Positions 17,305 through 36,189 of a stretch of DNA of 64,000 nt are shown piece after piece. The translations under genes were made by a program, and so were the position numbers. Origin of the DNA: a virus; the IMG/VR virus record IMGVR_UViG_3300036770_005682, positions 73,812 to 137,811 of that record. One strand, written 5' to 3'. The notes beneath the pieces were generated by a model that was given only the letters and a program-made list of their open reading frames with translations, was not told the DNA's origin and did not search any database. Position 1 is the stretch's first letter. Each line of letters starts with the position of its first letter.

Positions 17305-17790
17305 CGGCTCAAAGTCACCGAAAGCCGTCGGGCGACCTGCCGGAAGAACTCCAACTGACCGGCGATGCTGGCTCAACAGTCCCGTATAGCTCTTAGAGCT
17401 CTACGGGGCTAACGCGGCGGGAAGAAGGTTTCCTGCGGGAAGTTCCGCAACCTAACACGAAAAACTCAAAAGTCAAGTTTTTGGAACCTTGAAAATAAAG
17501 GATTTCAAGTTTTGGGTTTTTGAAAATAAAAAACAAGAAACTGAAAACTCGGTTTTGCCGTCGGCACGAGTGCCATCTGAGTCCCCGTGCGGCTGACCTC
17601 GGCAGCCCCGCCGCCAGCATCTCAAAAAGATTTGACGGTGGCGGAAGAGCGGGTTCGGGTCAGGGTTTTGTGCCAAACCTAGACGCTCAGAACGGCTCAG
17701 GCTGAAACGGGGTCACCGATACCGCAGAAGAGGACGAACTCCCGTGAGAGGGCGTGTGAGGGGGCTATCCGAGGCGTTTAGGGGCATGGC

Positions 17791-17821
17791 AAAGCCGACC
17801 CACCCAACTGGCAGGTCGGCT
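17791..17821 (-). terminator. intrinsic terminator
   Basis: AGCCGACC/GGTCGGCT stem followed by TT on the - strand. Confidence 0.55.
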
Positions 17822-17834
17822 CAACCGATAACTA

Positions 17835-17885
17835 CTAGACGAAGAACAGCGCAGTCAAGGCGATGACTACAACGATGGCGGTCAT
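17835..17885 (-). CDS. 16-aa hydrophobic micropeptide MTAIVVVIALTALFFV
   Basis: ATGA overlap with the stop of the upstream gene; followed by a terminator. Confidence 0.6.
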   Translation of the reverse strand: MTAIVVVIALTALFFV

Positions 17886-18154
17886 GCTTGGGGAATACCC
17901 AAAGCGGCGAGCGTTGGGTGCGTTGAGTGTGTTTCTCCCTGTGCGTCTACCCACACAACAACATCACGACGAGGTGGTTCTTGCCCGCATGGGTAAAAGG
18001 CTGCCTTGTGCCAACCCTTAGAGCCACAGTTGTCGCAGTAGCGTTCCCAGTCTTGCGGGTCGTCCCACCACGCATGAGTTGCGTAGTTCGCATCTGCTTC
18101 TTCTTGTGTCCCAGCGAAAGGGACTGGTTCGTTTATGAGTTGGATTACCTTCAT
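17882..18154 (-). CDS. hypothetical protein with CDNC motif, leaderless
   Basis: ATG is 7 nt downstream of a TACACT -10 element. Confidence 0.75.
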   Translation of the reverse strand: MKVIQLINEPVPFAGTQEEADANYATHAWWDDPQDWERYCDNCGSKGWHKAAFYPCGQEPPRRDVVVWVDAQGETHSTHPTLAALGIPQA

Positions 18155-18161
18155 GTTGTGA

Positions 18162-18190
18162 AGTGTACCTAGCACATCGCAGAAAGTCAA
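18162..18190 (-). promoter_or_regulatory. sigma-A promoter (leaderless)
   Basis: TTGACT-17-TACACT. Confidence 0.8.
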
Positions 18191-18364
18191 GCGATGTCGG
18201 AAGAAACTTTCGAGACCTTCCTGGACGCCTGGCTGATGAACCCGATAGTCCCGTATCCCCAAGATGGGTATACGGGGCTGATGGCACGGGAAGGAAAACT
18301 TCCGGAGTTGACTTTTCACGGGCGGCTTGTTAGGTTATGCGTTTTGGTGTTTTGAGGTTTTTCA

Positions 18365-18407
18365 CCACTTTTAGTGGTTTTTGAGCAAAGTTCGCCACGG
18401 AAAGTGG
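18365..18407. repeat. paired CCAC-N5-GTGG palindromes within A/T tracts (copy 1)
   Basis: CCACTTTTAGTGG at 18365 and CCACGGAAAGTGG at 18395, starts 30 bp apart. Confidence 0.75.
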
Positions 18408-18540
18408 CGATTCCGAGAAAAACAACAAAACAACAACGAAGTTCTCGCCCGCCGAACGTGCGCTGAGCCGACATCAACTGGGTCGTCTGCGGGGCTGATG
18501 ACCCAGTCACATTTACGACGGTGGCGGAAGACGGGCAACA

Positions 18541-18570
18541 AGAAAGCCCGCCCCCTTTCGGAGACGGGCT
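18541..18570 (-). terminator. intrinsic terminator
   Basis: AGCCCG...CCGAAAGG...CGGGCT then TTCT on the - strand. Confidence 0.65.
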
Positions 18571-18575
18571 CTTGG

Positions 18576-18626
18576 TCAAACTGCCAGCAGAAGAACAACT
18601 GCCAGCGTAATCACTAACGCTGTCAC
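18576..18626 (-). CDS. 16-aa hydrophobic micropeptide MTALVITLAVVLLLAV
   Basis: GTG 2 nt after the upstream stop, GAGGGG SD, followed by a terminator. Confidence 0.55.
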   Translation of the reverse strand: MTALVITLAVVLLLAV

Positions 18627-19131: not shown

Positions 19132-19286
19132 TTTTTCCTAAAACTAAAACGGAAAAGTCGAGCTCAGCTCCTCGAGCTCACGTAGCTTCGCCAGCTATGC
19201 GGGGTTGTGGGGCGGGGCTCACAACCCCGACGCATCTACTTTGACGGTGGCGGAAGACGGCTAGCGCACCTGAGCCGAGACAGCAA

Positions 19287-19325
19287 CAAGCCCGCCGTGC
19301 GGGGGGAAGGGGCACGGCGGGCTTG
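19287..19325 (-). terminator. terminator-like hairpin with C-rich loop
   Basis: CAAGCCCGCCGTGC/GCACGGCGGGCTTG stem; loop CCCTTCCCCCC on the - strand. Confidence 0.65.
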
Positions 19326-19344
19326 TGCGATTGGTGAGAATGGA

Positions 19345-19707
19345 CTACTTCCAGCAGGCAGCGGAATAGACGACTTCGCTCAGGTTGTCGCAATAGACAT
19401 CAAGCACTTCGTGCTCAACGACTAGCGTACCTTTCGCTTCGCCACGGTTCACGAGTCGGACACGGCGCACTTCGTACAGGTCTAGGTAGTTGAGTACCAC
19501 CTCAACCGCACGACTCTCTCCGCACAGCATTAGCAAGCCAATGGTCACGCCATCGCTAGCGTTCACCTTTGCCCACTTTCCACCGCACACAGCGAGAAAG
19601 GTCATCTTGCCCATTTGGGCTATGACCTCTTGCGGGTCGCAGTCACGACCTGAACGGTCAAGGTTGCGCAAGGCAATCAGAGACAGGTCGGTTTTCGTTG
19701 CTTTCAT
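19345..19707 (-). CDS. hypothetical protein
   Basis: GAAAGGGGG SD; 120 aa ending DVYCDNL.E.VY. Confidence 0.8.
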   Translation of the reverse strand: MKATKTDLSLIALRNLDRSGRDCDPQEVIAQMGKMTFLAVCGGKWAKVNASDGVTIGLLMLCGESRAVEVVLNYLDLYEVRRVRLVNRGEAKGTLVVEHEVLDVYCDNLSEVVYSAACWK

Positions 19708-19730
19708 TTCTTCACCCCCTTTCACCTTGC

Positions 19731-19775
19731 AGGGTACAAGTCGCAAGTGGGTAAGTCAATAGGACAAGTGTCACA
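19731..19775 (-). promoter_or_regulatory. sigma-A promoter with abutting CRP-like half-match
   Basis: TTGACT-17-TACCCT; TAGGA-N6-TCACA at 19760-19775. Confidence 0.7.
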
Positions 19776-19786
19776 CTCGCCAGCCA

Positions 19787-19834
19787 GCCCGCCCGCACGC
19801 CCGCCCGCACGCCCGCCCGCACGCCCGTACGCAC
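19787..19834 (+). repeat. 12-bp tandem repeat GCCCGCCCGCAC x3 plus one variant
   Basis: Read directly. Confidence 0.9.
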
Positions 19835-19925
19835 GCGCGCGTAAGAGTCCCGGACGGGATTTATTCCCGACGGGGCTCCCGCACGGGATTGACGGTGGTG
19901 GAAGAGTTCCGATGCGGGCACAAAC

Positions 19926-19955
19926 AAAATGCCCGCCCCCTTGCGGAGACGGGCA
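19926..19955 (-). terminator. intrinsic terminator
   Basis: TGCCCG...CGGGCA then TTTTG on the - strand; near copy of the 18541 hairpin. Confidence 0.65.
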
Positions 19956-19972
19956 GTTCGTTGGAGTTTCAG

Positions 19973-20329
19973 TTAGCGGTCTGGATTCGGCGTTGCCTTC
20001 ACCGTAAAAGTTCCGCTTGCATCGTGGTGGGCGAGGTGGCAAGTGAGCACTTTCGTTTCAGGGTCAAGCGAGTAACGCAATGACCATTCCGAACGGACAG
20101 TGATACTTTCCAACAACTTCATCGGAGTATCGGCGTGGAAAATGCCGTCTATCGTGCGTGCCCACAAAGGGAATCCTTCAATGCGCCACCAAGTGTCGCC
20201 TTCGTGAAGTTCCTTGTTGTGTTCAAGCATGACTTCGGCAGTCATGGCAAACAAGTCTGTCGCCATGTCCCACTCCCACTCTTCGGAAGTGTTGCTTACC
20301 TCTTCCCACTCCAAGTCGGAGTCAAGCAT
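19973..20329 (-). CDS. hypothetical protein
   Basis: GAAAGGGGGG SD; 118 aa with C-terminal HHD motif. Confidence 0.8.
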   Translation of the reverse strand: MLDSDLEWEEVSNTSEEWEWDMATDLFAMTAEVMLEHNKELHEGDTWWRIEGFPLWARTIDGIFHADTPMKLLESITVRSEWSLRYSLDPETKVLTCHLAHHDASGTFTVKATPNPDR

Positions 20330-20359
20330 GACTCCCCCCTTTCATGAGTTGAGAATGAC

Positions 20360-20414
20360 AGACTACCGACTTAGTAGCGATTAGTCAAGTAGGCATCGTG
20401 TGACATTAGGCACT
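20360..20414 (-). promoter_or_regulatory. sigma-A promoter with upstream CRP-like box
   Basis: TTGACT-17-TAGTCT; TGTGA-N6-GCACT at 20399-20414. Confidence 0.7.
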
Positions 20415-20654
20415 TCCGAGTAAGACGATAAGAATAAGGACTACAAAGATAGGCACTAATGACATGACAGCAACTTACCGCACCTGAGCCGAAAAAACAA
20501 CAACCCGATGTCGGCGATGTCGGGATGGGACGGGAGCCCCGGAGGCCCGCTGCCGGCCCACGGGGCTAACGGGTATCCGACGGTGGCGGAAGAAGGGCTC
20601 GCACTTCTCGTCGGGCTGACTTGGTCTGCTCAGTTTCAGTCGTGCTGTTTCGTG

Positions 20655-21141: not shown

Positions 21142-21322
21142 GTTTGCCCTCAACTCCCAGTCGGAACACCTCGCCAGATGGCTTTGATGGCATCTGGTAG
21201 CCCCGGAAGCCGTGCGGCAGCAACGGGGCTCCCACAGGAGTGCGACGGTGGTGGAAGTCCCCTGGTCTCCGCCTCTCCTCGCCTACCTCGCCCGCTGTCA
21301 TCATTCGTCTGTCTCAAACTGA

Positions 21323-21367
21323 TGTGACAAACGTCATGTTGTGATGTGTACCTGACAGGTGTAGTGT
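21323..21367 (+). promoter_or_regulatory. sigma-A promoter (leaderless) with abutting CRP-like box
   Basis: TGTGA-N6-TCATG at 21323-21338; TTGTGA-17-TAGTGT; ATG 7 nt later. Confidence 0.7.
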
Positions 21368-21374
21368 GCTATGT

Positions 21375-21962
21375 ATGGAAACAGCAACGAAGGAAGCCAT
21401 AGCACTACGGGTGCTTGCCGAATACTGGCAGACAGATGTAGCCCCAATGGTGAACCCACGAGCCTGTGTGCTTGCTGGACGCTTGGCGACTGTTGTGCTT
21501 GGTCGCATCGGCATTTCCACCGCCGTCTACCACACCGACACCGTTGCTATGAATGACCTGTGGTACAACCTGTTCATCGTCAAGGGGCTTGGTCAGCAGT
21601 TCCTTCCCCCTGAGGCATGGTGTGTTGGTGCTGTCACCGCAGATGTCAAGGGAACGCACAGCACGATGGTTGGCGGTTTCAGCGGTCACCTTGTTGTGAC
21701 AACCCCGCACCACTTTGTAGACCTGAGCGCAAGCCAGTTTGACCGTCCCTCACATGACATCGTGACTGGCTCGCCACTCATCGTCCCCCGTGAGAACATC
21801 ACAGACACGCCACATGGCAAGATGGTTCCGATACAGCGTGGTGTTTACATCACGAAGCCTGCCGAGAACCCTGCGTCATACCAATGGACACCCGACTGGC
21901 AGACCAACTACAAGACCTTTGCGAAGCCACTCATCACCCGCCTGCGGGAGATGTTCTCGTGA
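21375..21962 (+). CDS. hypothetical protein, possible Cys-His-Asp transglutaminase-like fold
   Basis: ACV.A...GHLVV....VDLSA.QF pattern. Confidence 0.7.
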   Translation: METATKEAIALRVLAEYWQTDVAPMVNPRACVLAGRLATVVLGRIGISTAVYHTDTVAMNDLWYNLFIVKGLGQQFLPPEAWCVGAVTADVKGTHSTMVGGFSGHLVVTTPHHFVDLSASQFDRPSHDIVTGSPLIVPRENITDTPHGKMVPIQRGVYITKPAENPASYQWTPDWQTNYKTFAKPLITRLREMFS

Positions 21963-22216: not shown

Positions 22217-22371
22217 CCGGAATGTTGTATTCGCAGCGCAACGCACACTCATGCCCGTGGGGGTGCTGTGGCGATTTCGTCAAGGGTCGTGGAACGAAGC
22301 ACCGCTGTAAGAAGTGGCATCGCATCTTGCGTACCCGTGAGAAGCGCAACTGGAAGAAAGAGGAATGGTGA
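22213..22371 (+). CDS. small basic Cys-containing protein (52 aa)
   Basis: Read manually; ATGA overlap; CPWGCC, R.REKR.WKK. Confidence 0.65.
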   Translation: MTGMLYSQRNAHSCPWGCCGDFVKGRGTKHRCKKWHRILRTREKRNWKKEEW

Positions 22372-22838
22372 CTGCACCCGAATACGAAAGTTGGTGGGAC
22401 AGCGATGCTGGCAAGCCCGCCAGTCTCTGCGATGCCTGCGGGCAGAAGCAACTACTAACCCAACAGACATCGCCCGCCCTTCCTGATGGGGGCTGGATTA
22501 TGGAGTTTGAGCATTTCGGCTATTACGGCGGGTTCTCTGACGACATTGAGGTTGCGTTTGGCAAGCGAGACAGTAACTCATGGTCGCTTTGCCATGACTG
22601 CGTTGTGAAGTTCTTTGAGACATTCCCTGCGCTAGCGGAGAAGTTCGGTCGGGGGCACCACCCCAACTTCATTCACACAGACGACCTGCCGTACAGTGAG
22701 CGAGGCACATCTAGCCCGTCATGCTGTCGCTTTGCGTGGACATGGAATGTGACCGTTGAGAACGGAGAGAAGGTCTACGAGACTTTCTACGGAGATGGCA
22801 CAGGTGGCTGGGTTGCCCAGTCTAAGGAGCGAGTCTGA
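22365..22838 (+). CDS. Zn-binding hypothetical protein
   Basis: CDAC...GYYGGF.D...LCHDC. Confidence 0.75.
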   Translation: MVTAPEYESWWDSDAGKPASLCDACGQKQLLTQQTSPALPDGGWIMEFEHFGYYGGFSDDIEVAFGKRDSNSWSLCHDCVVKFFETFPALAEKFGRGHHPNFIHTDDLPYSERGTSSPSCCRFAWTWNVTVENGEKVYETFYGDGTGGWVAQSKERV

Positions 22839-22888
22839 TGGTTGTCAGCATCGTCGCCCTGATAGCCATCCTTCTGCTGTTGTCCTAG
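22838..22888 (+). CDS. 16-aa hydrophobic micropeptide MVVSIVALIAILLLLS
   Basis: TGATG overlap with the upstream stop, AAGGAG SD, last gene of the operon. Confidence 0.6.
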   Translation: MVVSIVALIAILLLLS

Positions 22889-23097
22889 AACAGCATTTCC
22901 CCGCTACTGCCCTCTTTCTTTTTTCTGCTTGTCTCTGTCTCTACGCAGATGGAGTGGGCGTACTTGTGCTGGTTCTTCACGCCCCTGATGCCTGTGTTGT
23001 TGTCACGCACCCACGCCAACACGAGTTTCATAGTTCCACTTTGGTTCGGAACTACCTCTTGGTCACAGAACTCACATCGGAAGCGAACGTACGACAT
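22885..23097 (-). CDS. small Zn-binding protein, leaderless
   Basis: CEFC...HSIC; TTGCGC-17-TATTAT (23133-23105) then ATG 7 nt later. Confidence 0.7.
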   Translation of the reverse strand: MSYVRFRCEFCDQEVVPNQSGTMKLVLAWVRDNNTGIRGVKNQHKYAHSICVETETSRKKKEGSSGEMLF

Positions 23098-23183
23098 TAT
23101 GGAAATAATACCGGCCGGGGCTCCCGAGCGCAACAGCATCTTCTTTGACGGTGGTGGAAGAAGCCCCTGAACGGGGACAGCAG

Positions 23184-23213
23184 AAAGCCCACACCCGTTT
23201 CCGAGTGTGGGCT
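23184..23213 (-). terminator. intrinsic terminator
   Basis: AGCCCACAC/GTGTGGGCT stem, TTCT on the - strand. Confidence 0.65.
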
Positions 23214-23236
23214 GACTGTTGGAAGCGAGTTGTGCG

Positions 23237-23692
23237 CTAGTTGTTCTTGGCGATGAGTTGGTAAAGCGTGGAGAGCAGAGCGTCTGCGAGAGAGCCGTGC
23301 GCTTCACCTTCGTCTGTCATCGGTTCATCGGGGTCGTGCTGAAAGACGACTGCCGAACCCATTGTTCCGTCACGCTCAACGCAAGCACAGAGACGCACAC
23401 GCTGACGGAGTGGGTGCTGGCTTGGTGCGCCTTCCACTTCGCCGTTGGAGTTGAGTGGGGAAGCCCACCCCGTCGTCAGGACACCAATGCCCTGCTCGTA
23501 CTCCTGAATGTTCTCAATGCTCGGCAGGCTCGCAAGCCCTTCGTAGATGTCTCCTGCTGTCGCAAGGACACGGAAGCCGTCGGCACAGTACGCAAACAGG
23601 ACTGCCTGTTCCATACTGAAACCTTCGTCTCCTTCCTTGGAGAGTGAGTGCTGGGCGAGTAACGCCATACGCACAGGTGTTGGTGTTGTCAC
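23237..23692 (-). CDS. hypothetical protein
   Basis: GAAAGGGG SD; TTGWA.P...PSQHP.R.RVRL motif. Confidence 0.8.
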   Translation of the reverse strand: MTTPTPVRMALLAQHSLSKEGDEGFSMEQAVLFAYCADGFRVLATAGDIYEGLASLPSIENIQEYEQGIGVLTTGWASPLNSNGEVEGAPSQHPLRQRVRLCACVERDGTMGSAVVFQHDPDEPMTDEGEAHGSLADALLSTLYQLIAKNN

Positions 23693-23722
23693 TTGTTCCC
23701 CTTTCGTAGTGGTGACAGTTAC

Positions 23723-23767
23723 ACACTACACAGAACACAAACAAATGTCAATGTGTCGTTAGGCACA
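23723..23767 (-). promoter_or_regulatory. sigma-A promoter with abutting CRP-like box
   Basis: TTGACA-17-TAGTGT; TGTGT-N6-GCACA at 23752-23767. Confidence 0.75.
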
Positions 23768-23958
23768 GCCGGCAAGTCCAAACTTTGACCGAGTCCAAAC
23801 TTTGAGCAGGTCAAGACCGACAAACCGGAACGCCGGTGACATCTGGGGCTGAGAGCCCCGCGCCCCGCCGCAGCCCAACGGGGCTCCACACCACTTTGAC
23901 GGTGGCGGAAGAAGCCCTCGTGTGCGCCTGCGTGTGTGCGCCTGCGTGTGTGCGTGAA

Positions 23959-24013
23959 TGTGCCGAATGTCACTACGCACCCCTATTGACTTGCTGTTCC
24001 TGTCAAGTACACT
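23959..24013 (+). promoter_or_regulatory. sigma-A promoter with upstream CRP-like box
   Basis: TGTGC-N6-TCACT at 23959-23974; TTGACT-16-TACACT. Confidence 0.65.
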
Positions 24014-24045
24014 CAACAACACCTACTAACCGAAGGGACGGAACA

Positions 24046-24630
24046 ATGGGAATGGACGTAATCGGGAAGAACCCGAAGAACAAGAAGGGCGAATACTTCC
24101 GCAACAATGTGTGGTGGTGGCGACCCCTGTGGCAATACTGCGAGTATGTCGCACCCGAACTGACCGACAAGGTGGAATACGCTGGCTCTAATGACGGAGA
24201 CGGGCTGGACGGAGATGACGCTCGCAAGTTGGGCAACGCTCTGCGGAAAGAACTCCGCAAGGGCATGACCGCCGTGTACATCTCTGCTCGTCAGGAATAC
24301 TTGGACAGCCTGCCTGTTCGCCCGTGCGCCCATTGTGAGGCAACGGGAACTCGCAAGTGGCTGGTCAATGCCACTACAAACGAGCGCAAGCCGGCTGTGA
24401 CCTACAACTTCTTGGAAGCGTTCACCAACGAGCAGACGAACAACGGGCAACTGCCGACTTACGAGTACCACACGCCCGAAGAAGGCTGGGTGGAAGAGAC
24501 AACCGAATGTAATGGTTGTGAAGGCACGGGTGGACAGCCTGCGTGGGAACGCTCGTACCCCCTCACCGAAGAGAATGTTCGTGAGTTCGCCACCTTCTTG
24601 GTGAACTGCGGTGGATTTGAGATTTGGTGA
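24046..24630 (+). CDS. hypothetical protein with split DnaJ-type CxxCxGxG Zn finger
   Basis: MGMD, YFRNNVWWWRPLW, CAHCEATG...CNGCEGTG, C-terminal GGFEIW. Confidence 0.8.
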   Translation: MGMDVIGKNPKNKKGEYFRNNVWWWRPLWQYCEYVAPELTDKVEYAGSNDGDGLDGDDARKLGNALRKELRKGMTAVYISARQEYLDSLPVRPCAHCEATGTRKWLVNATTNERKPAVTYNFLEAFTNEQTNNGQLPTYEYHTPEEGWVEETTECNGCEGTGGQPAWERSYPLTEENVREFATFLVNCGGFEIW

Positions 24631-24848
24631 TGACCCCCGTACATGACCTTGTGCTGCGCTTCATGCGCTCAAACCTCATTGGCAAGCGTGTCACTTTGTT
24701 GTTCACTTCCGACCCCTACACCAACCTCACACGGGGTGATGAAGGCGTTGTGGACTACATTGACGACATTGGTACTGTGTTCGTCAAGTGGGACAACGGC
24801 TCTCGCTTGGGTCTTGTGGAAGGAGAAGATTTGTGGACATACAACTGA
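24630..24848 (+). CDS. DUF4314-like SH3-fold protein
   Basis: G.RV.L....DPY..L..G..G.V..IDD.GT..V.WDNGS.LGL..GED. Confidence 0.75.
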   Translation: MTPVHDLVLRFMRSNLIGKRVTLLFTSDPYTNLTRGDEGVVDYIDDIGTVFVKWDNGSRLGLVEGEDLWTYN

Positions 24849-25087
24849 CAGATGAATGGGCTGACATCTCTATTGCTGAGTTGGCTGACCTCATGGAAGA
24901 GAACTACTACCTGCTCGCAAGTACGGGTCAGGACGCTTTTTTGGCGTTCGCAGATGATGTGTTGCGTGGTGCGTTCACCGAGTATCACGGCATGAGCGAG
25001 GAACGGACTGCTTTGCTCATGGTTGAGTTTGTCAAGCGTATGGTTCTTGTGTGGGACAAGCCTGCCGTGCCTTACGAGGTGCGCTAA
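24833..25087 (+). CDS. hypothetical protein
   Basis: AAGGAG SD before GTG 24833. Confidence 0.65.
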   Translation: MDIQLTDEWADISIAELADLMEENYYLLASTGQDAFLAFADDVLRGAFTEYHGMSEERTALLMVEFVKRMVLVWDKPAVPYEVR

Positions 25088-25152
25088 TGCTGTGGTTTAT
25101 CGGTATGTCGGCACTCGCTAGTCTTATTTTGTACCTGCGCTTCTCTGACTAA
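25087..25152 (+). CDS. 21-aa hydrophobic micropeptide MLWFIGMSALASLILYLRFSD
   Basis: TAATG overlap, GAGG SD, last gene before hairpins. Confidence 0.55.
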   Translation: MLWFIGMSALASLILYLRFSD

Positions 25153-25200
25153 GTTCTCCAACAGGGGTAATCCGTCCCCCCTTTCACCTCTGTTGGACTG

Positions 25201-25244
25201 AAACCCCCAAGTCGTGTCTCACGCTGGCACGGCTTGGGGGTTTT
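25201..25244 (+). terminator. intrinsic terminator
   Basis: AAACCCCCAAG...CTTGGGGGTTTT. Confidence 0.75.
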
Positions 25245-25380
25245 CTCATGTCCGAACTTCGGTGGCCATCTACGGCCAGCATCACAGATGGTAAATACGA
25301 CCCGCCGGGGCTCCCGCCCGCCCGCCCGTCACTACTTTGACGGTGGCGGAAGAGCAGGGACACGAGAGTGGGTACACGAG

Positions 25381-25417: not shown

Positions 25418-25435
25418 AGCAGGGACGGTCAGTTG

Positions 25436-27882: not shown

Positions 27883-27887
27883 GGGTC

Positions 27888-29420: not shown

Positions 29421-29534
29421 ACCGCACAGGCGGACTGTTCCCCCACCCACAGGGACAGCCCGCCCAAGCGTGGCGGGCGGGTGGCACTTCCCCCTTTCAG
29501 TCACCCGCCCGCCTGAACACGAAAGAGAACGCAG

Positions 29535-29696
29535 ATGAAGTGGAACACCACAGCAGTCATGGGTCACATTGTTGAGACTGTGACCACCGAAGCAGACGAC
29601 ATTGACACCGCAACGGAGATGGCATACGACCTGCTGGAAGGCAAGGGCTATGACCTGTCAGCCTTTGACGAAGTGACAACGGAGAGCGAGCGATGA
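29535..29696 (+). CDS. small acidic protein (53 aa)
   Basis: Read manually (MKWNTTAVMGH...); ATGA overlap with the next gene. Confidence 0.65.
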   Translation: MKWNTTAVMGHIVETVTTEADDIDTATEMAYDLLEGKGYDLSAFDEVTTESER

Positions 29697-29953
29697 GCAA
29701 GTACCGTGTTCAGGTCATGGTCGGCGTAGATGTCTCAGCCGACACAGATGGCGAGGCGATGGTGAACGCCGTTGCGAAGGTGCGTGGCATTATCGGGGAG
29801 AACCCGACAGAGCCAATGCCGAAGGAAGCGTGGGTGACGGGCATCGCACTTGCCGACCCCGCACATTGGCATCACACGAGCGTTGAGGGGTACATGGTAT
29901 TCCGACAGCCCGACCGAGCCGAGGACAACTCTTTGACGGTGGCGGAAGACTAG
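29693..29953 (+). CDS. hypothetical protein; its 3' end encodes a motif copy (..SLTVAED)
   Basis: 86-aa ORF. Confidence 0.7.
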   Translation: MSKYRVQVMVGVDVSADTDGEAMVNAVAKVRGIIGENPTEPMPKEAWVTGIALADPAHWHHTSVEGYMVFRQPDRAEDNSLTVAED

Positions 29954-30177
29954 TCGCTGAACACTTTTTTGTCGTAGATGCGTAGGGCATTTACGGCAAG
30001 GCTGGTCACGGCGCACTTCCAGTAAGGTGCGTTCCAGTCTGTGATGTCAGACGAACGCAAGAACCACAGCACAACCCACAGCACTCCGCCGTAAATAGAA
30101 CCCGCAAGTCCAGCCCCTGCTAGCGTAACTAAGAACGCTGGTTTGGGGCTGTTTGTTATCTCAGGGTGTTTAGGCAT
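29950..30177 (-). CDS. small membrane protein
   Basis: MPKHPE start; FLVTLAGAGLAGSIYGGVLWVVLW transmembrane segment. Confidence 0.6.
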   Translation of the reverse strand: MPKHPEITNSPKPAFLVTLAGAGLAGSIYGGVLWVVLWFLRSSDITDWNAPYWKCAVTSLAVNALRIYDKKVFSD

Positions 30178-30544
30178 TGACGGTCTTGCCCAAGCGGTTG
30201 ATGATTTGGTGAACGCGCTGGCGCGACAACCCGTACTCATCACCGATGCTTTGGAGCGACCTGCCATTTTGACGGGCAACGAGCATGGCGTTGTCCCTGT
30301 CGGGATTACCTGATGGGCCGGGCTTACATGGCCCCCATGCCCACCCTGCGAACTTCTCCAACTGTGCGATGCGCTCAGGAGACAGAGTGCCTGCCCGATA
30401 CTTGATACGCACATAGGTCACCCATGACCCAAGTGAAACTGTCTCTCCGTCCACCGAACACTTGTACGAGGTCGGTACAAGGGCTGTTCCGTGTTCTGAA
30501 ACGTAGGTGGATAGTGCTTGAATGTTTTTGTCCCATCGGCTCAT
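30170..30544 (-). CDS. helicase-associated (HA) domain plus sigma70-region-4-like HTH
   Basis: W......L..Y...HG...VP..Y......LG.WV...R......L...RI..L; SLQSIG..YGLSRQRVHQI; leaderless after TAATGT. Confidence 0.8.
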   Translation of the reverse strand: MSRWDKNIQALSTYVSEHGTALVPTSYKCSVDGETVSLGSWVTYVRIKYRAGTLSPERIAQLEKFAGWAWGPCKPGPSGNPDRDNAMLVARQNGRSLQSIGDEYGLSRQRVHQIINRLGKTVNA

Positions 30545-30682
30545 AGTCTTGACATTACTCGACCGGCCACCGGCTGCGGCGGAACCGGCTTGACAGCCCC
30601 GCGATGCGGCCGCCAGCTTCCGGGGCCCCTGATGACGGTGGTGGAAGACAGGGCCGGCCCTCGAGAAAGTTTTCGCCACGTG

Positions 30683-30711
30683 TTGCATTTGTCAGTTGTA
30701 CTGGGTAGTGT
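30683..30711 (+). promoter_or_regulatory. sigma-A promoter
   Basis: TTGCAT-17-TAGTGT. Confidence 0.65.
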
Positions 30712-30743
30712 GACGGCACCACTTCACAAGGAAGGAGAAGGAA

Positions 30744-30953
30744 ATGGAAACCTATGACAAAGAAGCAGTAGAGAAACTGCAACCAGAGAAAGCACGGGGG
30801 GAAGTGGGAGTGCTCTCAATGGAAGGACTAGATGTCGGCGTCAAAATCGCAGACGTTCGTGTCCGCTTCGGTCATATTGATTACCTAGTCAAGCCACTCA
30901 ACGGCAAGGGCGAGGTATGGGTGGAGCGCCACCGTGTCAAAGTGATGGCGTGA
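30744..30953 (+). CDS. small beta-rich hypothetical protein
   Basis: AAGGAG SD; D.R.RFG..DY.V.P..G.GE.WV. Confidence 0.75.
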   Translation: METYDKEAVEKLQPEKARGEVGVLSMEGLDVGVKIADVRVRFGHIDYLVKPLNGKGEVWVERHRVKVMA

Positions 30954-30992
30954 CAAACGTCACTTGACAAACTGGCTTGTGGGGTGTAGCGT
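30949..30992 (+). promoter_or_regulatory. sigma-A promoter with abutting CRP-like box
   Basis: CGTGA-N6-TCACT at 30949-30964; TTGACA-17-TAGCGT. Confidence 0.75.
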
Positions 30993-31033
30993 GTACCCCA
31001 CAAGTCACTACTTATCTATTAGCAAGGGGAACA

Positions 31034-31183
31034 ATGTCAGACGAACTGACCTACTGGAACTGCCACAAGTGCAAGGACACTTGGGAGCCGTACTACGGCA
31101 TGCTGAGCATCAAAGACGATGTCACGCCCGCCATCATCATCTACACCTGCATCAACTGTATGCCAGACGACGAGGAGGAATGA
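31034..31183 (+). CDS. small Zn-ribbon protein
   Basis: AAGGGG SD; CHKC...CINC. Confidence 0.65.
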   Translation: MSDELTYWNCHKCKDTWEPYYGMLSIKDDVTPAIIIYTCINCMPDDEEE

Positions 31184-31344
31184 TGCGTACCCTCATCATC
31201 ACACTCACCACACCCGACGAGATTGACCCATCAGAGGTCGCTGAAATCATGGTTGACGACTTTTACTACTCAAACCGTGCTACCGAGGACTTCGGCCCGC
31301 ACATGGAGGAGATTCTCATCTCATGGAAGGAAGAAGAGAAATGA
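31180..31344 (+). CDS. small acidic protein
   Basis: GAGGAGG SD, ATGA overlaps on both sides. Confidence 0.65.
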   Translation: MMRTLIITLTTPDEIDPSEVAEIMVDDFYYSNRATEDFGPHMEEILISWKEEEK

Positions 31345-31661
31345 GAGCCATAGCAAGCGCTCCGATGCGCATCATGCCCATTACTGAAGCGATAGAAATC
31401 CGCTTCAGTTCCACGTCATACAAAGGCGACGTCACAAAATGGCAACTGCTCGCCAGCGTGAACACAAACGGCACCATCTCCTACACGCTTCACCGTGTTC
31501 CCCGTGCCTCGTACGGTTACTCATTGACCAGCCTTGTGGGTACCTCTCGTGTGATTCTTCCGATGAAGGCCTACGATGGGTGGCACGGCGATGTTCTTGA
31601 GTGGGTTCGTGACCACACTCTGTCAGGCAAGACCGTCTACGAGATTGAGAAGGTGCTCTAA
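31341..31661 (+). CDS. hypothetical protein
   Basis: Coupled operon gene. Confidence 0.7.
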   Translation: MRAIASAPMRIMPITEAIEIRFSSTSYKGDVTKWQLLASVNTNGTISYTLHRVPRASYGYSLTSLVGTSRVILPMKAYDGWHGDVLEWVRDHTLSGKTVYEIEKVL

Positions 31662-32119
31662 TGGCTACGCGTTCTGTTGTCGCTCGCTTGACTGAAAGCG
31701 GTATTGAGGGTCGCTACGTTCATTGGGATGGTTACCCCATCCACATGATGACAGCGCTCTACGAGTTGATTCGCCGTGACGGCTACGAGACCGTCACACG
31801 TGTTCTTCTTGACGAACACGACGGGTGGTCATCCATCAACCCGTTCCAAGAAGAAGACGACGACACGATTGGACACGTGGAGACGCTTGAGTACTGGGGC
31901 AAGTACTACACGGACACACCGAACGAACCATTCTTCACGACATTGAGCGAGGCGTACGACGCTTGGGCGGAATACGTGTACATCATCGTCGCAGAGGGTG
32001 AACAGCCTGTGGAGATTCGCTGTTACCGCCAAGACACAGACGAACCGATTCAGGTGATGCAGGTGCTGTGCGACCATGAATACGACTCGTACTGTGCGAA
32101 CTGCGGGGTGGACTCATGA
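31661..32119 (+). CDS. hypothetical protein (MATRS...YVHWDGYP type)
   Basis: Recurrent phage motif M.TRS, Y.HWDGYP, EY.Y. Confidence 0.8.
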   Translation: MATRSVVARLTESGIEGRYVHWDGYPIHMMTALYELIRRDGYETVTRVLLDEHDGWSSINPFQEEDDDTIGHVETLEYWGKYYTDTPNEPFFTTLSEAYDAWAEYVYIIVAEGEQPVEIRCYRQDTDEPIQVMQVLCDHEYDSYCANCGVDS

Positions 32120-32259
32120 AAGATTTGATTGAGGAAATCATCAACATTCTCAACTTGCCTGGTGAGCAATACACAGACGGCGAATGCCTGGACCTCATCG
32201 CAGAGTTGTTGACGGAAAATGGATTTGAAGTTTTTGAGGAGCAGAATGAAAGCGCATGA
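32116..32259 (+). CDS. small acidic protein (47 aa, TDGECLD motif)
   Basis: Read manually; ATGA overlap. Confidence 0.6.
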   Translation: MKDLIEEIINILNLPGEQYTDGECLDLIAELLTENGFEVFEEQNESA

Positions 32260-32497
32260 ACTCATCAAGCAATTGATGGAACTTCCGCCAGACGAGCCCG
32301 TCTGTGCACTCGTGTGGACAAAAGCAGAGTTTGATTTCAACGACGAGTATGACGAGTTGGAATTGACCCCCGAGGGTTGGCAAAAGGTCTGCGACGACTT
32401 CTACAGTTCCCTGAACGTGCTGTGCCACACGATTGACGAAAGTCTCAACAACGCAGTATTGGACTACGCAATAGAAAAGAGTTTTGATGCCGAGTGA
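32246..32497 (+). CDS. hypothetical protein
   Basis: GAGGAG SD, MKAHELIKQL start. Confidence 0.7.
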   Translation: MKAHELIKQLMELPPDEPVCALVWTKAEFDFNDEYDELELTPEGWQKVCDDFYSSLNVLCHTIDESLNNAVLDYAIEKSFDAE

Positions 32498-32894
32498 ACA
32501 AGTACTCGTAAACGACGACGGGGAAATCCAATGCATATGCATGAACGAGCCGTCGTGGGATGGGTTCAGCGCATGCCACCGCAATGGCCAAGTGGATGAC
32601 AATCTGCTTTCAAAGCACAACGTCGACAGCGTCTACTACCTGTGTCAGCGCTGTGGCCGAATCATTAACGAAACAACCCTCGAGGTTGTGGCAGTGCTGC
32701 AGTCAGATGAAGAAAATTTTGATGACCTGTTCACTGCGGCCGTCGGGATGAAGGAACGTGCACACCGCATAGCCCAGCAGGCGCTGGAGGAGAAACCATG
32801 GAACGTCGAGGAAATGATGGGTGACCTCTCGAGTATCGAGCGACTTCTGGTGTGCCTCCAGAAGGTGAAACTCCAGGAGCTCCAAACGTTCTGA
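32487..32894 (+). CDS. Zn-binding hypothetical protein
   Basis: C.C.N.P..DGF..C...CQRCGRII. Confidence 0.75.
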   Translation: MPSEQVLVNDDGEIQCICMNEPSWDGFSACHRNGQVDDNLLSKHNVDSVYYLCQRCGRIINETTLEVVAVLQSDEENFDDLFTAAVGMKERAHRIAQQALEEKPWNVEEMMGDLSSIERLLVCLQKVKLQELQTF

Positions 32895-33204
32895 CAACTC
32901 TTTTACGGTGGTGGAAGAGGTTGTAATTACATAACGAAGTAGCTATTATGACTAAACAAATGCTGACGCCTGATATGACGCTCCGCTCGACACTGTGCGA
33001 GCTCAAGAAATTTGAACACCCTCCAGTGAGCCGCTTTAAATTAGGCAGTCCTTGTCGTTTCATCCGAACAATTGACATATTTGTCCACATCGTTATCCCC
33101 GAACTTGTGGAAAAACCTTTTCCACATCTCGCGCGATATCTGCGCAACACATCCCCTCGCTGGGGCCGCAGCTGGCGGCACTGGTAACTACAGAAAGGAA
33201 AACC

Positions 33205-33513
33205 ATGTTTGACGACATGCCCAACCCATACGAAGACCTCTATATCTGGGATTCCCTGGAGAAACGCGGCTTCCCTATCGGCTCGGCCGTGCAATGCATT
33301 CATCTCAACGCACCAGGCGTACGTGAGGTAATTGTCAACGGAGACCCCGAAGCAATCCAGACTCTCATGAATTCCGAGGGCCGTGAGCTCAGCGAAACCA
33401 TGGTCGAGGTCCTGAAGACGTTCGTCGGAATCATGTTCAAGGTTTACGCTGACCAGCCAGACGAAAAGCGGATGGAAATCCTCGAGTACATCAAAGGCCT
33501 GGCTGGCCAATGA
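33205..33513 (+). CDS. hypothetical protein
   Basis: AGAAAGGA SD. Confidence 0.75.
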   Translation: MFDDMPNPYEDLYIWDSLEKRGFPIGSAVQCIHLNAPGVREVIVNGDPEAIQTLMNSEGRELSETMVEVLKTFVGIMFKVYADQPDEKRMEILEYIKGLAGQ

Positions 33514-33585
33514 TGGCCACATTAATATTCGCTGCGGCGGTAGTAGCGCTATTCACGTGTAACTGATGTGGTACCATCCCGGACC

Positions 33586-33762
33586 ATGTCGAAAAGATTT
33601 ATCTGGAAATGCCCCAAGTGCTCGAACAAGCTCGAGGTGCGTGTGTCTTTGTCGACCGCCCCAGTCTGTGCGAACAAGAAAAGTCACACCTCGAAGCCCC
33701 AGGTCATGGAGCTCATCGAGGGCGGCGAAGGGGCCATCGTTAAAAAACCAGCCAATAAATAA
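33586..33762 (+). CDS. small Zn-ribbon protein
   Basis: CPKC...C....H; TACCAT -10 just upstream. Confidence 0.6.
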   Translation: MSKRFIWKCPKCSNKLEVRVSLSTAPVCANKKSHTSKPQVMELIEGGEGAIVKKPANK

Positions 33763-33807
33763 TCACTGACAACTCTTTTACGGTGGCGGAAGACCTAGTA
33801 TTACTGC

Positions 33808-34293
33808 ATGAACACAACCGCATACAACATCGAAACCTGGAATGATGGGGCCGCCGCTGCGGCAGAGAAGATATTCGACTTCCCAGTCCCCCACCCCGGT
33901 TTATCCATCATCGAGCTCCGGTCGAGCTTCACAAAGATGGAAGATTATTTCGCCCGTCATGAAAACAGTGGCATGTTCTCTATTGCCTGGTCAGACGTAG
34001 GCAACGTAGCTGCGCGCTATGCCGCTAATAGCGGCCATCGCTTTACGCAGGATGAGCTAGTTGAGACATTAGTTCGCAAGCAACGTGACTACGGTCATAA
34101 TAATATTCTCCGTTTTGGCACGTATGGCGTCATCGTCCGCTGCCACGACAAAATCGCACGCCTCGAGCACCTCCTCGAGAACGGCAAGACACCCCAGAAC
34201 GAATCAATCAAAGACAACTTGATGGACGTCGCCGGCTACGCGGCAATTGGCATCATGCTCAACCATGGATGGTTCGAAAAAGAGCTGAAGTGA
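33808..34293 (+). CDS. nucleotide-modification-associated domain protein (DUF1599-like, MazG/dUTPase-type helical fold)
   Basis: KQRDYG..NI..FG..G..VR..DK.ARL, ES..D.L.D.AGYA. Confidence 0.8.
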   Translation: MNTTAYNIETWNDGAAAAAEKIFDFPVPHPGLSIIELRSSFTKMEDYFARHENSGMFSIAWSDVGNVAARYAANSGHRFTQDELVETLVRKQRDYGHNNILRFGTYGVIVRCHDKIARLEHLLENGKTPQNESIKDNLMDVAGYAAIGIMLNHGWFEKELK

Positions 34294-34389
34294 GGGGAGT
34301 CTCAGCGCAGCCAACCTACCCACAAACCGCGCTGAGACTCTAACCCTCGTGAGGGGAAGGGGACCCTCGAGGTCCAGGTTACACCATTA

Positions 34390-34403
34390 CGAACACATGT
34401 TCG
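34390..34403. promoter_or_regulatory. LexA (SOS) box
   Basis: CGAACACATGTTCG, perfect consensus. Confidence 0.7.
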
Positions 34404-34599
34404 GGGATGCCGGGGCTCCCACCCACGTTGCGCTCATTAACATTTGACGGTGGCGGATGACCCCAAAAAAATTTCCCGAATCTGCTTGCAGCCGCCACAC
34501 CCTCCTGCTACAGTTCCTCCCACAACCGAAGGCCGGCCTAAAACCTTCACTTTCAACGTTGCCCAAATCCAGCAACGTTATTTGTGTTGCCCCAACTCA

Positions 34600-34823
34600 T
34601 GTTTTTTACCCCTGCCGCCTAGTGGGGGGGACTACAGGGGGGGGGTAAGTCACCTTACTGAACAATAATTGCGTTCTAGTACATCAGCTAGCGCTGATTG
34701 TTCTAGAAGCGTGAAATAACTTGAAGTTCTATAGTTCTTGAGTAAGGTAAGTCATAGTTAGTACTACAACTCCCCTACCAGTATGTTGTAGTACCAATGG
34801 TCGCGTAGAAGGAGTAAGTAATT
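34600..34823. other. candidate replication origin
   Basis: Non-coding; G7-ACTACA-G9 element, AT-rich stretch with four GTTCT(A/T) repeats, directly upstream of initiator-like and loader-like genes. Confidence 0.4.
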
Positions 34824-35180
34824 TTGGCGCGGAAAAAATTGTCCGATAAAAAAGTTCCGGTAGAAAACCTCCCATACTTTTCCTCCGTAACAGAAGATTC
34901 GGTATTTCAGGTTTTCACTATTTGGGTGGATACTTTTTGGTCCGGACGCGGACGACGTCCTGAGTTGACGCATAGCCGGCGCGACGCCATCACTCGAGGA
35001 ATAGCTGGACATGGCCTCCAGAAGGCTATTAAGGCCGTACGGGGCTGTTCACAGTCCGAGTTCCACATGGGCGGGAACGACCTGGGGAAGCAGTACACGT
35101 CGCTCGAGCTCATCTTCCGCGATGACTGGCGCATCAAGAAATTCGCTAGCATGTACAAACCGACGGTGGAGGAAGAATGA
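34824..35180 (+). CDS. replication-initiator C-terminal-like protein
   Basis: W......LT..RR..I....G......AV.GC..S.FHMG.ND.GK.Y..LELIFRD...I.KF. Confidence 0.55.
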   Translation: MARKKLSDKKVPVENLPYFSSVTEDSVFQVFTIWVDTFWSGRGRRPELTHSRRDAITRGIAGHGLQKAIKAVRGCSQSEFHMGGNDLGKQYTSLELIFRDDWRIKKFASMYKPTVEEE

Positions 35181-35647
35181 CCAAGGATGAAGTAGTCAAA
35201 GCAGTAGAACTTCTCTACTCGCACTGGAATGACCGCCTGCCCAGCTCAGATGCCCCCAAGAAGGCCGCTCTGCGTGCCTGGGCCGAGTTTCTTATTGACC
35301 TTGACTACGAAGCCGTCGTCCGAGCCATATCGCACGCAGCCGTCTACGACACGTACATGCCGCGTCCAGGTCAGATTCGGAAAGCCGTACTCCAGGAGTG
35401 CAGCCAATTACCAATCCCCCCGACTCCCGTGGAGGCTTGGGGTCAAGTTCGCTCTCTATGCGAATCAGTAGCGACTGGGACTTACAGCGAAGATAGCTTT
35501 CATCCCTGCGTGCTCGCCACAGTACGACAAATGGGAGGCATCGCCGGCGTCTCAGTGAACACAAACGGGGACCGAACATACTTCTTGGAAGCGTATCAGG
35601 AGCAAGTACGAGCCTGGGAAAAGCTCCACTATAAACTGATTCCGTGA
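35177..35647 (+). CDS. helicase loader/inhibitor (G39P-like)
   Basis: MT.DE....V..L...W, W...L.DL.Y..V..A, P.P..IR, EAW..V. Confidence 0.65.
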   Translation: MTKDEVVKAVELLYSHWNDRLPSSDAPKKAALRAWAEFLIDLDYEAVVRAISHAAVYDTYMPRPGQIRKAVLQECSQLPIPPTPVEAWGQVRSLCESVATGTYSEDSFHPCVLATVRQMGGIAGVSVNTNGDRTYFLEAYQEQVRAWEKLHYKLIP

Positions 35648-35661
35648 ATTAACATCTTGCC

Positions 35662-35841
35662 ATGCGCAAGAGGATGGGCCGACCGGCCAAACACGCTGCC
35701 GGCGACACGACGATTACTTTACGCGTCCCTGCCGACATCAAGAACCGGATTGTCGACATGGCAGACGCTTACGACATGACGATTACCGAGTACCTCTTGA
35801 CACTTGTGGAGAGAGATGTCTCGGACACCCCAGCGCGCTGA
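35662..35841 (+). CDS. ribbon-helix-helix protein (59 aa)
   Basis: Read manually: GRP....TITLRVPADIKNRIVDMADAYDMTITEYL. Confidence 0.75.
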   Translation: MRKRMGRPAKHAAGDTTITLRVPADIKNRIVDMADAYDMTITEYLLTLVERDVSDTPAR

Positions 35842-36154
35842 GTTACCAGACGGTAAGTACAACCTCGTCGTCCAGATACCGGGCTGGCTGAAGAACGAGA
35901 TACTCGACGCCTGCGGGGACGCGAGAATCAACCAGTGGGTTTCGACGGTGTTGTATGAGGCTGTGCGCGAAGCACGCGGCCTGCCGCCTGCGCCGCCACC
36001 AGCCGCGCCGAAGCCGACGACTGCCGACCAGATACGGGCCTACATGGTTGGTGAAACACTGCTCCAACCGTGTGGGAAGACCGACTGCGAACCAGTCTGG
36101 CAGGAAATACAAAACATGCAGTTTTGTGAAAAATGCGGTGTGCGGGGTATCTAG
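35816..36154 (+). CDS. RHH-like protein with C-terminal Cys cluster
   Basis: NLVVQIP.WLK..I...INQWV; PCG..DC...CEKC. Confidence 0.7.
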   Translation: MSRTPQRAELPDGKYNLVVQIPGWLKNEILDACGDARINQWVSTVLYEAVREARGLPPAPPPAAPKPTTADQIRAYMVGETLLQPCGKTDCEPVWQEIQNMQFCEKCGVRGI

Positions 36155-36189
36155 CGCCCTTTATTCACCACGGTGGCGGAAGTGTGTTA

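Follow-up and report, generated by a model that had tools for sequence, protein, structure and literature searches.

A co-oriented 15-bp motif marks the joints of shuffled gene cassettes in large uncultured phages and resembles an operator/stoperator site

The subject of this study is a repeated 15-bp motif, GACGGTGGYGGAAGA, in a 64,000-nt stretch of viral DNA (the window) that forms the final 64 kb of a 137,811-bp record, IMG/VR IMGVR_UViG_3300036770_005682. The ends of this record overlap by 127 bp, and it is therefore a circular assembly. Seventeen copies of the motif, all on the plus strand, punctuate a block of early-region genes that face both ways, and in related phages these copies are the joints at which gene cassettes are exchanged. 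Our best explanation, to which we give roughly an even chance, is that the 15-mer is an operator/stoperator site like that of phage L5, doubling as a recombination joint like the promoter-early-stem-loop (PeSL) repeats of T4-like phages; the binding and the mechanism in this proposal are predictions from sequence and structure comparison.

The initial annotation of the window had reported 17 co-oriented copies, and the motif is indeed present at all 17 starts on the plus strand (Table 1). The motif as written there matches literally at 11 of the 17, where shuffled sequence predicts none (100 shuffles); the other six carry one mismatch (five copies) or two (the last copy). Allowing up to two mismatches gave 18 matches in the window against 0.24 expected. 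These include all 17 listed positions, and the eighteenth, a two-mismatch match at 36948, was left out of the count. A count over the entire record at no more than one mismatch gave 16 forward and 0 reverse copies, every one at 17.6-35.2 kb of the window, so the full motif is absent outside the array, as had been claimed. The recounted spacing is likewise the same, with 11 of the 16 gaps between copies measuring 648-883 bp.

Two subtypes of flank had also been described, and both are real. A CGGGGCT box lies 15-34 nt upstream of 10 motif copies, and the array holds 14 of the 16 occurrences of this box in the genome. It is present in close relatives only; its inverted-repeat partner AGCCCCG is found near only about five of the 17 copies and is absent from distant relatives. 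The second form has GACAACTCTTT before the copies at 29935, 32904 and 33779. GC-rich tandem repeats stand beside two copies, GCCCGCCCGCAC repeated 4.5 times (19778-19840) at copy 4 and GTGTGCGCCTGCGT repeated 2.5 times (23920-23954) at copy 8, both in spacers between the motif and cassette promoters.

Table 1 Positions of the motif copies, flanking boxes, cassettes, candidate regulator and transcription signals in the window.
Feature	Position	Strand	Details
Motif copy 1	17634-17648	+	exact; one minus-strand gene on each side
Motif copy 2	18517-18531	+	exact; minus-strand terminator-like hairpin after copy
Motif copy 3	19243-19257	+	exact
Motif copy 4	19891-19905	+	exact
Motif copy 5	20579-20593	+	exact
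Motif copy 6	21244-21258	+	1 mismatch
Motif copy 7	23147-23161	+	exact
Motif copy 8	23898-23912	+	exact; divergent junction
Motif copy 9	25339-25353	+	exact; convergent junction
Motif copy 10	26211-26225	+	exact; divergent junction
Motif copy 11	29935-29949	+	exact; over final codons (LTVAED*) of plus gene 29693-29953
Motif copy 12	30634-30648	+	exact; ~90 nt upstream of candidate regulator gene, directed away from that gene
Motif copy 13	32904-32918	+	1 mismatch, TACGG form; separate promoter-like TTGTAA-17-TATTAT begins 2 nt downstream
Motif copy 14	33779-33793	+	1 mismatch; ATG at 33808 is 14 nt downstream
Motif copy 15	34446-34460	+	1 mismatch; own TTGACG, 17-nt spacer and AAAAAT, promoter-like
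Motif copy 16	35162-35176	+	1 mismatch (GGAGG); over stop of 34824-35180 and start of 35177-35647
Motif copy 17	36169-36183	+	2 mismatches; between convergent 35804-36154 (+) and WhiB-like gene 36190-36627 (-)
CGGGGCT box before motif copy 2	18490-18496	+
Other CGGGGCT boxes (starts)	19213, 19871, 20561, 21224, 23116, 23879, 25306, 26195, 34411	+
Cassette family 4	19243-19891	-	gene 19345-19746; other neighbours in L072
Cassette family 6	19891-20579	-	gene 19973-20329
Cassette family 13	23147-23898	-	gene 23237-23692
Cassette family 12	23898-25339	+	three plus genes, ~24046-24630, 24624-24848 and 24788-25087
Cassette family 7	25339-26211	-	gene 25436-26011
Candidate motif-binding regulator	30170-30544	-	124 aa; HA domain (PF03457) and sigma-70 region-4-like helix-turn-helix
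Intrinsic-terminator-like hairpin and T run	19930-19955	-	ends gene 19973-20329; 25 nt from copy 4
Sigma-A-type promoter TTGACA-17-TAAACT	26047-26075	-	minus cassette gene 25436-26011
Sigma-A-type promoter TTGACA-17-TACATT	17250-17278	-	minus gene 17023-17217
Sigma-A-type promoter TTGACT-16-TACACT	23986-24013	+	plus cassette, coding signal from ~24046

An exact-motif scan of viral contigs returned at least 119 loci, some of them duplicates or pieces of one contig, and the motif is thus conserved across the lineage. Among these 119 motif-found loci, 47 hold two or more copies at no more than one mismatch, and in none of the 47 is the orientation mixed. Five related whole records of 100-158 kb gave forward/reverse counts of 11/0, 0/8, 9/0, 0/7 and 1/6. 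Within each, the copies lie in one block of 12-19 kb, except for lone one-mismatch matches at 51745 (G001) and 61547 (G005), so that strand bias and confinement to one block extend over all six whole records, the window's own included. A logo of 164 distinct copies shows a near-invariant 15-mer that varies at position 8 (C/T) and position 12 (A/T). Since T precedes the motif at -1 in 126 of these copies and positions -8 to -2 are AT-rich, the extended site reads mostly wwTTGACGGTGGYGGAwGA, and its first six bases form a -35-type hexamer; among 290 distinct copies from the window and its relatives, TTGACG (TT before the G) is found in 135. The motif has no dyad symmetry, and its 8-mer core GGTGGYGG is without strand bias outside the array (9 forward vs 14 reverse). 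Neither the 15-mer nor its complement was found in the papers searched, where a 10-mer matched unrelated primers only. Ungapped comparison of the flanks gave three left-only and five right-only pairs, which are too few pairs to read further.

The motif keeps its strand whatever the neighbouring genes do. To define these genes, all six frames were scored with BLOSUM62 against relatives at 65-82% DNA identity, and every open reading frame (ORF) was searched with tblastn. Minus frames win this cross-relative test at 17882-18319, 19345-19746, 19973-20329, 23237-23692, 25436-26011 and 30170-30544, and a further minus gene lies at ~22885-23130; plus genes occupy 21366-21962, 22365-22838, ~24046-25087, 26518-29953 and 30744-36154. 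At least seven minus-strand genes in the window are flanked by plus-strand motif copies, and the statement in the initial annotation that the motif ignores gene orientation holds, the adjoining genes on both strands being real. These observations support a polar cis-signal that acts at the DNA level, whichever way the adjoining genes face. At its right end (32.9-36.2 kb) the array consists of a compact operon on the plus strand, in which the motif stands 0-29 nt before start codons or over stops. The minus cassettes have their own TTGACA-17-TAnnnT promoters and end in terminator-like hairpins with T runs, 8-25 nt from the next motif. Terminator-like matches in the region fall on the minus strand in 19 of 24 cases, a skew to which the many minus genes also contribute. 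Direct repeats of CAAAGTTTGGACT lie just upstream of the -35 boxes of two minus-cassette promoters (~23760-23800 and 26100-26140, minus strand) and may represent a second regulator site or an UP-like element.

When the loci were cut at motif copies and the pieces clustered by blastn, the copies proved to be the borders of cassettes that occur in other orders in relatives. Five families (4, 6, 7, 12 and 13) keep their motif-to-motif extent and their strand in the window and in relative L072 with zero shared adjacencies. The order is 2, -, -, 4, 6, -, -, 13, 12, 7, 8, 23, 40 and onward in the window; 2, 42, 43, 21, 4, 22, 7, 6, 12, 13, 8 in both L072 and L080; 2, 35, 4, -, 7, 6, 4 in L107; and 2, 11, 11, 39 in L049, where family 11 is a tandem duplicate. 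Alignments at the boundaries show homology that reaches the motif and ends there, with the CGGGGCT box moving with the cassette to its left. The motif copies are thus the joints at which relatives exchange gene cassettes. Contigs from freshwater runs contain a collinear variant that is ~93-95% identical. A low-depth contig in run X5 joins 25353, the last base of one motif, to 23174, 13 nt past another, which yields the 12-13 order of L072; as the contigs are metagenomic and were matched at 90% likeness, we treat this joint as a weak hint of rearrangement.

In a minority of copies the motif is a promoter module. Across the 290 distinct copies, a TAnnnT box starts at +21 in 22 (TG precedes it in 17) and at +22 in 16, with 0-8 at other offsets from +15 to +79. 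Altogether 41 of the 290 have TAnnnT at +20 to +22, which places TTGACG 17-18 nt before an extended -10 (TGnTAnnnT); in a first set of 156 copies, the motif's own TTGACG served as -35 with a 16-18 nt spacer in 24. A typical copy of this type reads TTGACG-gtggtggaagactctgc-TATGTT, and in several the ATG follows 8-9 nt later, a leaderless layout. In about 11 further copies (class ii) another -35 (TTGTAA or TTGAGA) starts 1-7 nt past the motif, 16-22 nt from the motif start, and is followed by a -10 and either a Shine-Dalgarno sequence or a leaderless ATG. Promoter-like matches on the plus strand number 49 at +20 to +80 vs ~1-2 per 20-nt bin elsewhere, and those on the minus strand peak at -220 to -160, where the promoters of the minus cassettes lie. 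In the majority of copies the motif is a stand-alone site, and it is equally conserved in both types, which points to a site for protein binding and not to a promoter in itself. Leaderless mRNAs are common in Actinobacteria, and -10 boxes (TAGTGT or TAGAAT) that lie only 3-9 nt before start codons, at 21340-21370 and 30690-30745 and in relatives L029, L092 and L027, suggest leaderless mRNAs in these phages as well.

The candidate for the motif-binding protein is encoded within the array. The ORF at 30170-30688 matches the Pfam families HA at 58.6 bits and Sigma70_r4 at 25.3 bits (cut-off 24.1). Homologues align from residue 49 onward, where an ATG at 30544 opens the sequence MSRWDKN; the longest ORF therefore over-calls the gene by 48 codons, the gene is 30170-30544, and the motif at 30634 lies upstream of it and outside the coding region. 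The helix LSRQRVHQI and the linker WGPxxPGP are near-invariant in 25 homologues of 34-82% identity. An AlphaFold2 model (mean pLDDT 86.9) folds well into two domains, residues 1-63 and 81-122, with a linker of low confidence between them, and the C-terminal ~48 residues superpose at 0.8-1.7 Å on region 4 of sigma-A (7kuf_B, 4g6d_A, 1ku7_A) and also superpose on LuxR-type helix-turn-helix domains. DNA binding by an HA domain has reportedly been described, to judge by the title of Mills et al. 2013, as cited in PMC12191111. The 50 homologues in a large protein collection all come from metagenomes and are mostly 126-131 aa long, and the protein had no match in 50,697 GenBank phage records.

Gene and motif are also linked by position. 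A protein-alignment search of viral contigs gave 466 pattern matches, of which 319 encode a relative of the regulator, and we analysed the best 80 of these 319 loci. At no more than one mismatch, 44 of the 80 carry the motif; the 241 copies all stand opposite the gene, with 0 on the gene strand. For the 10-mer core GACGGTGGYG the corresponding counts are 345 opposite vs 18 same-strand, with two or more opposite-strand cores in 55 of the 80 loci and a single one in 3 loci. In 25 loci a core directed away from the gene stands 77-137 nt upstream of it; past the regulator stop, a core follows within 27 nt in 13 loci and at 228-264 nt in 17. The corresponding distances in the window are ~90 nt (upstream) and ~235 nt. 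This arrangement reads as that of a regulator gene set among its own putative operators. Many protein-positive loci that lack the motif have 3' variants such as GAAAGC, TATGA and TATAGC; phylogeny and the mixing of variants within single genomes confound any covariation of the protein with the 3' variants (GAAGA, GATGA, TATGA, GAAAGC, TATAGC). More distant phages that encode a member of this regulator family have other repeated TTGAC-containing words opposite the gene, TTGACACACCC in L155, L164, L165 and L167 and ATGACTTGACAGC in L166 and L203, which may be either variants of the site or a further class of promoter.

The L5 site also holds a TTGAC word resembling a -35. The initial annotation had dismissed the analogy to L5 stoperators, too early in our view, given the -35-type hexamer at the start of the extended site, the promoter register in 41 of 290 copies and the antisense arrangement relative to the regulator gene. 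The L5-type sites of Cluster A mycobacteriophages are described as asymmetric and strand-polar, lying in promoters and short intergenic spaces or over start and stop codons, and as bound by a monomer with two DNA-binding domains that blocks elongation in an orientation-dependent manner (PMC9283540, PMC6550527). The likeness is to an asymmetric site in many copies, ~13 bp and >20 copies in the L5 type, compared with 15-17 bp and 16-17 copies here. It extends to placement: some copies are in promoter register, those at 29935 and 35162 overlap stop codons, start codons are overlapped in relatives, and the others are intergenic. Unlike the L5 sites, which are spread genome-wide, the array occupies 19 kb of 138 kb. 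L5-type phages are temperate and their sites are bound by the immunity repressor (gp71 in L5), whereas this phage looks lytic, with no integrase or resolvase found, and the candidate binder here has a different architecture, an HA domain with a sigma-4-like helix-turn-helix.

The second likeness is to the PeSLs of T4-like phages, described as short conserved repeats of terminator hairpin and promoter that flank ORFs in hyperplastic regions and as points where cassettes are deleted, inserted or swapped by homologous recombination (PMC2839356, PMC4122927). Cassette borders and rearrangement joints fall on the motif here in the same way. PeSLs, from which excised cassette mini-circles arise during infection, are composites of host-type early promoters, terminator stem-loops and Shine-Dalgarno sequences arranged along transcription, whereas the present site is 15-17 bp long and mostly lacks a -10, keeps one orientation though the enclosed genes face both ways, and has hairpins nearby that are minus-strand terminators of the neighbouring gene. 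The array resembles both L5 operator/stoperators and PeSLs and is a member of neither.

Our inferred scheme, which takes in regulator binding, a roadblock role and the direction in which regulation acts, would run as follows. The 15-mer would be the core of an asymmetric protein-binding site with a -35-type hexamer at its 5' end, bound by the 124-aa monomer through TTGAC with the sigma-region-4-like helix and through GTGGYGGAAGA with the HA domain. Between 6 and 17 copies per genome, on one strand, punctuate the transcription units of a single early/replication block. At promoter-type copies the regulator may compete with or replace sigma region 4 and so control initiation, and at stand-alone copies the bound regulator may halt RNA polymerase moving in the plus direction. 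Such a plus-direction stop would insulate each unit and protect the minus-strand cassettes, with minus transcripts ending at intrinsic terminators. As the only sequence common to otherwise unrelated cassettes, the motif would let ordinary recombination swap, duplicate and reorder them, as at the PeSLs of T4. Co-orientation may have been inherited from the mostly plus-strand layout of distant relatives, in which a crude count gives 236 ORFs on the motif strand vs 111 opposite, and it would persist, since recombination between direct repeats leaves them direct. On this view the shared orientation of the copies would require no tie to the gene that a cassette encloses.

Several observations weigh against the operator/stoperator reading. 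L5 sites are oriented with transcription, and here plus-strand copies flank at least seven minus genes. The convergent junction at 22838/22885 has no motif, nor do the minus genes left of 17634. Within the window, good promoter register is lacking; only the copies at 34446 (weak AAAAAT) and 32904 (separate promoter) qualify, and the promoter argument therefore rests on relatives. Fewer than two opposite-strand cores occur in 25 of the 80 regulator loci, 22 of which have no opposite core at all and five of these same-strand cores only, and the loci gathered by motif and by protein include duplicates and pieces of the same contigs, so that the counts are not independent. End points of high-scoring segment pairs show weak enrichment around the motif (7 of 98 fall within 10 nt of it vs 3% expected), and we therefore relied on the cassette-level comparison instead. 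Foldseek with the regulator model returned no match at E<=0.001, and in profile-to-PDB comparison its likeness to solved structures of sigma region 4 was weak (E 0.5-0.9). Finally, JGI labels one homologue 'Mor family transcriptional regulator', and the regulator could therefore be an activator.

An activator role is the core of the rival that survives best, which we nonetheless consider unlikely. The motif would be an activator-dependent middle-type promoter at which the HA/sigma-4 protein, like Mor or MotA, recruits host RNA polymerase, and copies without a -10 would either fire or be relics. It shares with Mu Mor/C and T4 MotA a phage-protein site that overlaps or abuts the -35 of host-polymerase promoters. 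The exact register with an extended -10 in 41 of the 290 copies fits this scheme, as do the typical activator position of the class-ii copies just upstream of another -35, the Mor-family name of the one homologue and the presence of Mu Mor and Mu C among weak Foldseek rows. Yet the other 249 copies lack TAnnnT at the right spacing and still have an intact 15-mer, and in at least seven cassettes of the window the motif is followed by minus terminators and antisense genes, where a plus promoter would make antisense RNA only. The Foldseek rows for Mor and C exceed 12 Å root-mean-square deviation, which is no significant structural match, and Mor sites are dyad-symmetric and few, whereas most copies here have no -10.

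A dedicated recombination site is quite unlikely. On this account the array would be an integron-like platform served by an unrecognised recombinase, possibly the HA/helix-turn-helix protein itself or a host enzyme. Like integrons, the array has co-oriented sites between cassettes of ~0.5-1 kb (0.65-0.9 kb for many here) of either gene orientation, the promoter-less ones facing one way and the reversed ones self-contained; the order is permuted without inversion, a tandem duplicate occurs, homology stops where the motif begins or ends, the joint in X5 links the end of one motif to a point 13 nt after another, and Resolvase helix-turn-helix domains are among the weak Foldseek rows. The complete record, however, contains 0 matches to Phage_integrase (PF00589), Resolvase or Y1_Tnp, with positive controls (14 of 14 genomes for PF00589), and thus no IntI or other tyrosine recombinase. 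We rejected an integron or transposon on this ground, and integron-type recombination is not supported. Nor is the motif an imperfect palindrome: it has neither dyad nor central spacer, the AGCCCCG/CGGGGCT repeat accompanies only ~5 copies and is missing in distant relatives, and no attI/Pc end structure is present. The fixed -35 register with -10 boxes points instead to a role in transcription. Short shared regulatory repeats are enough for shuffling in T4-like phages (PMC2839356). Similarly doubtful is a hybrid in which motif and HA/sigma-4 protein together form a cassette platform, the bound site stalling polymerases or forks, insulating cassettes and making the breaks that drive exchange, which would amount to integron-like capture without an integrase.

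Strict single-strand polarity, and the position of the array next to 360 nt of non-coding sequence and to genes resembling a replication initiator and a helicase loader, could indicate a genome-polar signal for a translocating machine, such as a fork barrier at a putative origin, a programmed single-strand nick of the T5 type, a pause in DNA entry or Chi-like nuclease attenuation. We find this very unlikely. The initial annotation took the GGTGGYGG core to resemble Chi-like words; Chi and KOPS words are strand-skewed genome-wide, whereas this core shows the unbiased 9 vs 14 outside the array and the motif is confined to one block of 12-19 kb in genomes of 100-158 kb, in all six whole records. 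Copies occur only at borders of transcription units and in promoter register, and the link to a sigma-4-like regulator gene again speaks for transcription. Genome polarity of the Chi/KOPS type thus fails on these counts, and the DNA-entry reading is not supported. A reading in which the copies have no function for the phage, being passive scars or terminal repeats that a small selfish element left as it spread through the early region, is hardly credible: they do repeat at cassette borders with flanks that differ by lineage (the CGGGGCT box and the GACAACTCTTT form), but the 15-mer is near-invariant in 164-290 distinct copies though the flanks no longer align, the complete record yielded no transposase, and the placement of copies with respect to the regulator gene is conserved.

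Other identities of the motif were tried and rejected. It is not its own sigma-70 promoter in the window, as neither the logo nor the window copies have a conserved -10. A phage-RNA-polymerase promoter (a T7-like reading of GGAAGA) is at odds with an orientation independent of genes, and a PHROGs scan of the large proteins detected no RNA polymerase family. Start-associated sequences, as in Cluster K, stand at a fixed distance upstream of starts, whereas the distances here are scattered; an ORF start (>=60 codons) lies within 60 nt of 46 of 152 copies, and shifted controls gave 13-60. Nor does the motif generally encode a TVAE(D/E) peptide, since that frame runs on for >=60 codons past 30 of 153 copies vs 24-25 for the other plus frames; a few gene families nonetheless begin (MTVVEE) or end (LTVAED*, PTVEEE*) in this frame. 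An RNA element was set aside with 0 Rfam matches at gathering score over 16000-37500 and with promoter-type copies lying upstream of their own start sites. Where the motif does fall inside a gene, it is always read in one frame (T-V-A/V-E-D/E), by chance or by constraint; it is C-terminal in two window genes (29935-29953 and 35162-35180) and N-terminal, as M(L)TVVEE, in families of relatives (L017, L029, L031, L073).

The genomic setting is that of a large phage. The WhiB-like gene on the minus strand at 36190-36627 points to an actinobacterial host, and these are probably large uncultured phages of Actinobacteria; no GenBank phage is similar at the DNA level. The region encodes a helicase, a class II ribonucleotide reductase, an AAA_25 protein, DUF932, and proteins resembling a replication initiator and a helicase loader. 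It also encodes an HslV/proteasome-like peptidase (36512-37162, minus), a PAPS-reductase-domain protein (12432-13583, plus) and a DUF1599 'nucleotide modification associated' protein (33808-34293, plus), the last two a hint of DNA modification in the phage. The ~360 nt at 34461-34823 have no conserved coding signal and no Rfam match, contain G runs (GGGGGGGACTACAGGGGGGGGG) and AT-rich parts, and lie directly upstream of the replication-initiator-like gene 34824-35180 and the helicase-loader-like gene 35177-35647; this segment may be a replication origin or a non-coding RNA. G+C content is 0.54-0.60 in the 17-36 kb array vs 0.43-0.53 in the rest of the genome, and GC3 is ~0.6-0.7 in array genes vs ~0.41 in giant structural genes. 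Outside the window, C1:50408-60796 encodes a protein of 3462 aa that has a NUDIX-like stretch and matches several PHROG families without known function; no RNA polymerase family was detected in this product or the other giant proteins scanned. A ParB_N domain (51 bits; C1:66235-66486) in a 291-aa open frame may serve partition, as in a plasmid prophage, or another role.

What is new here is a motif shared by a whole phage family as a variant of a stoperator-like site and a PeSL-like joint, together with a new candidate regulator; the family spans 319 regulator-encoding loci and at least 119 motif loci. If the operator/stoperator reading is true, the stoperator idea would reach beyond the temperate Cluster A mycobacteriophages to big uncultured phages that look lytic. 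The regulator would then represent a new small architecture in which a DNA-binding HA domain is coupled to a helix like that of sigma region 4, with the helix reading a -35 box. For locating the accessory-gene region of such genomes, the motif also offers a practical marker. In these phages, one conserved regulatory site would organise a hypervariable region of self-contained early genes and would also serve as the joint for their exchange.

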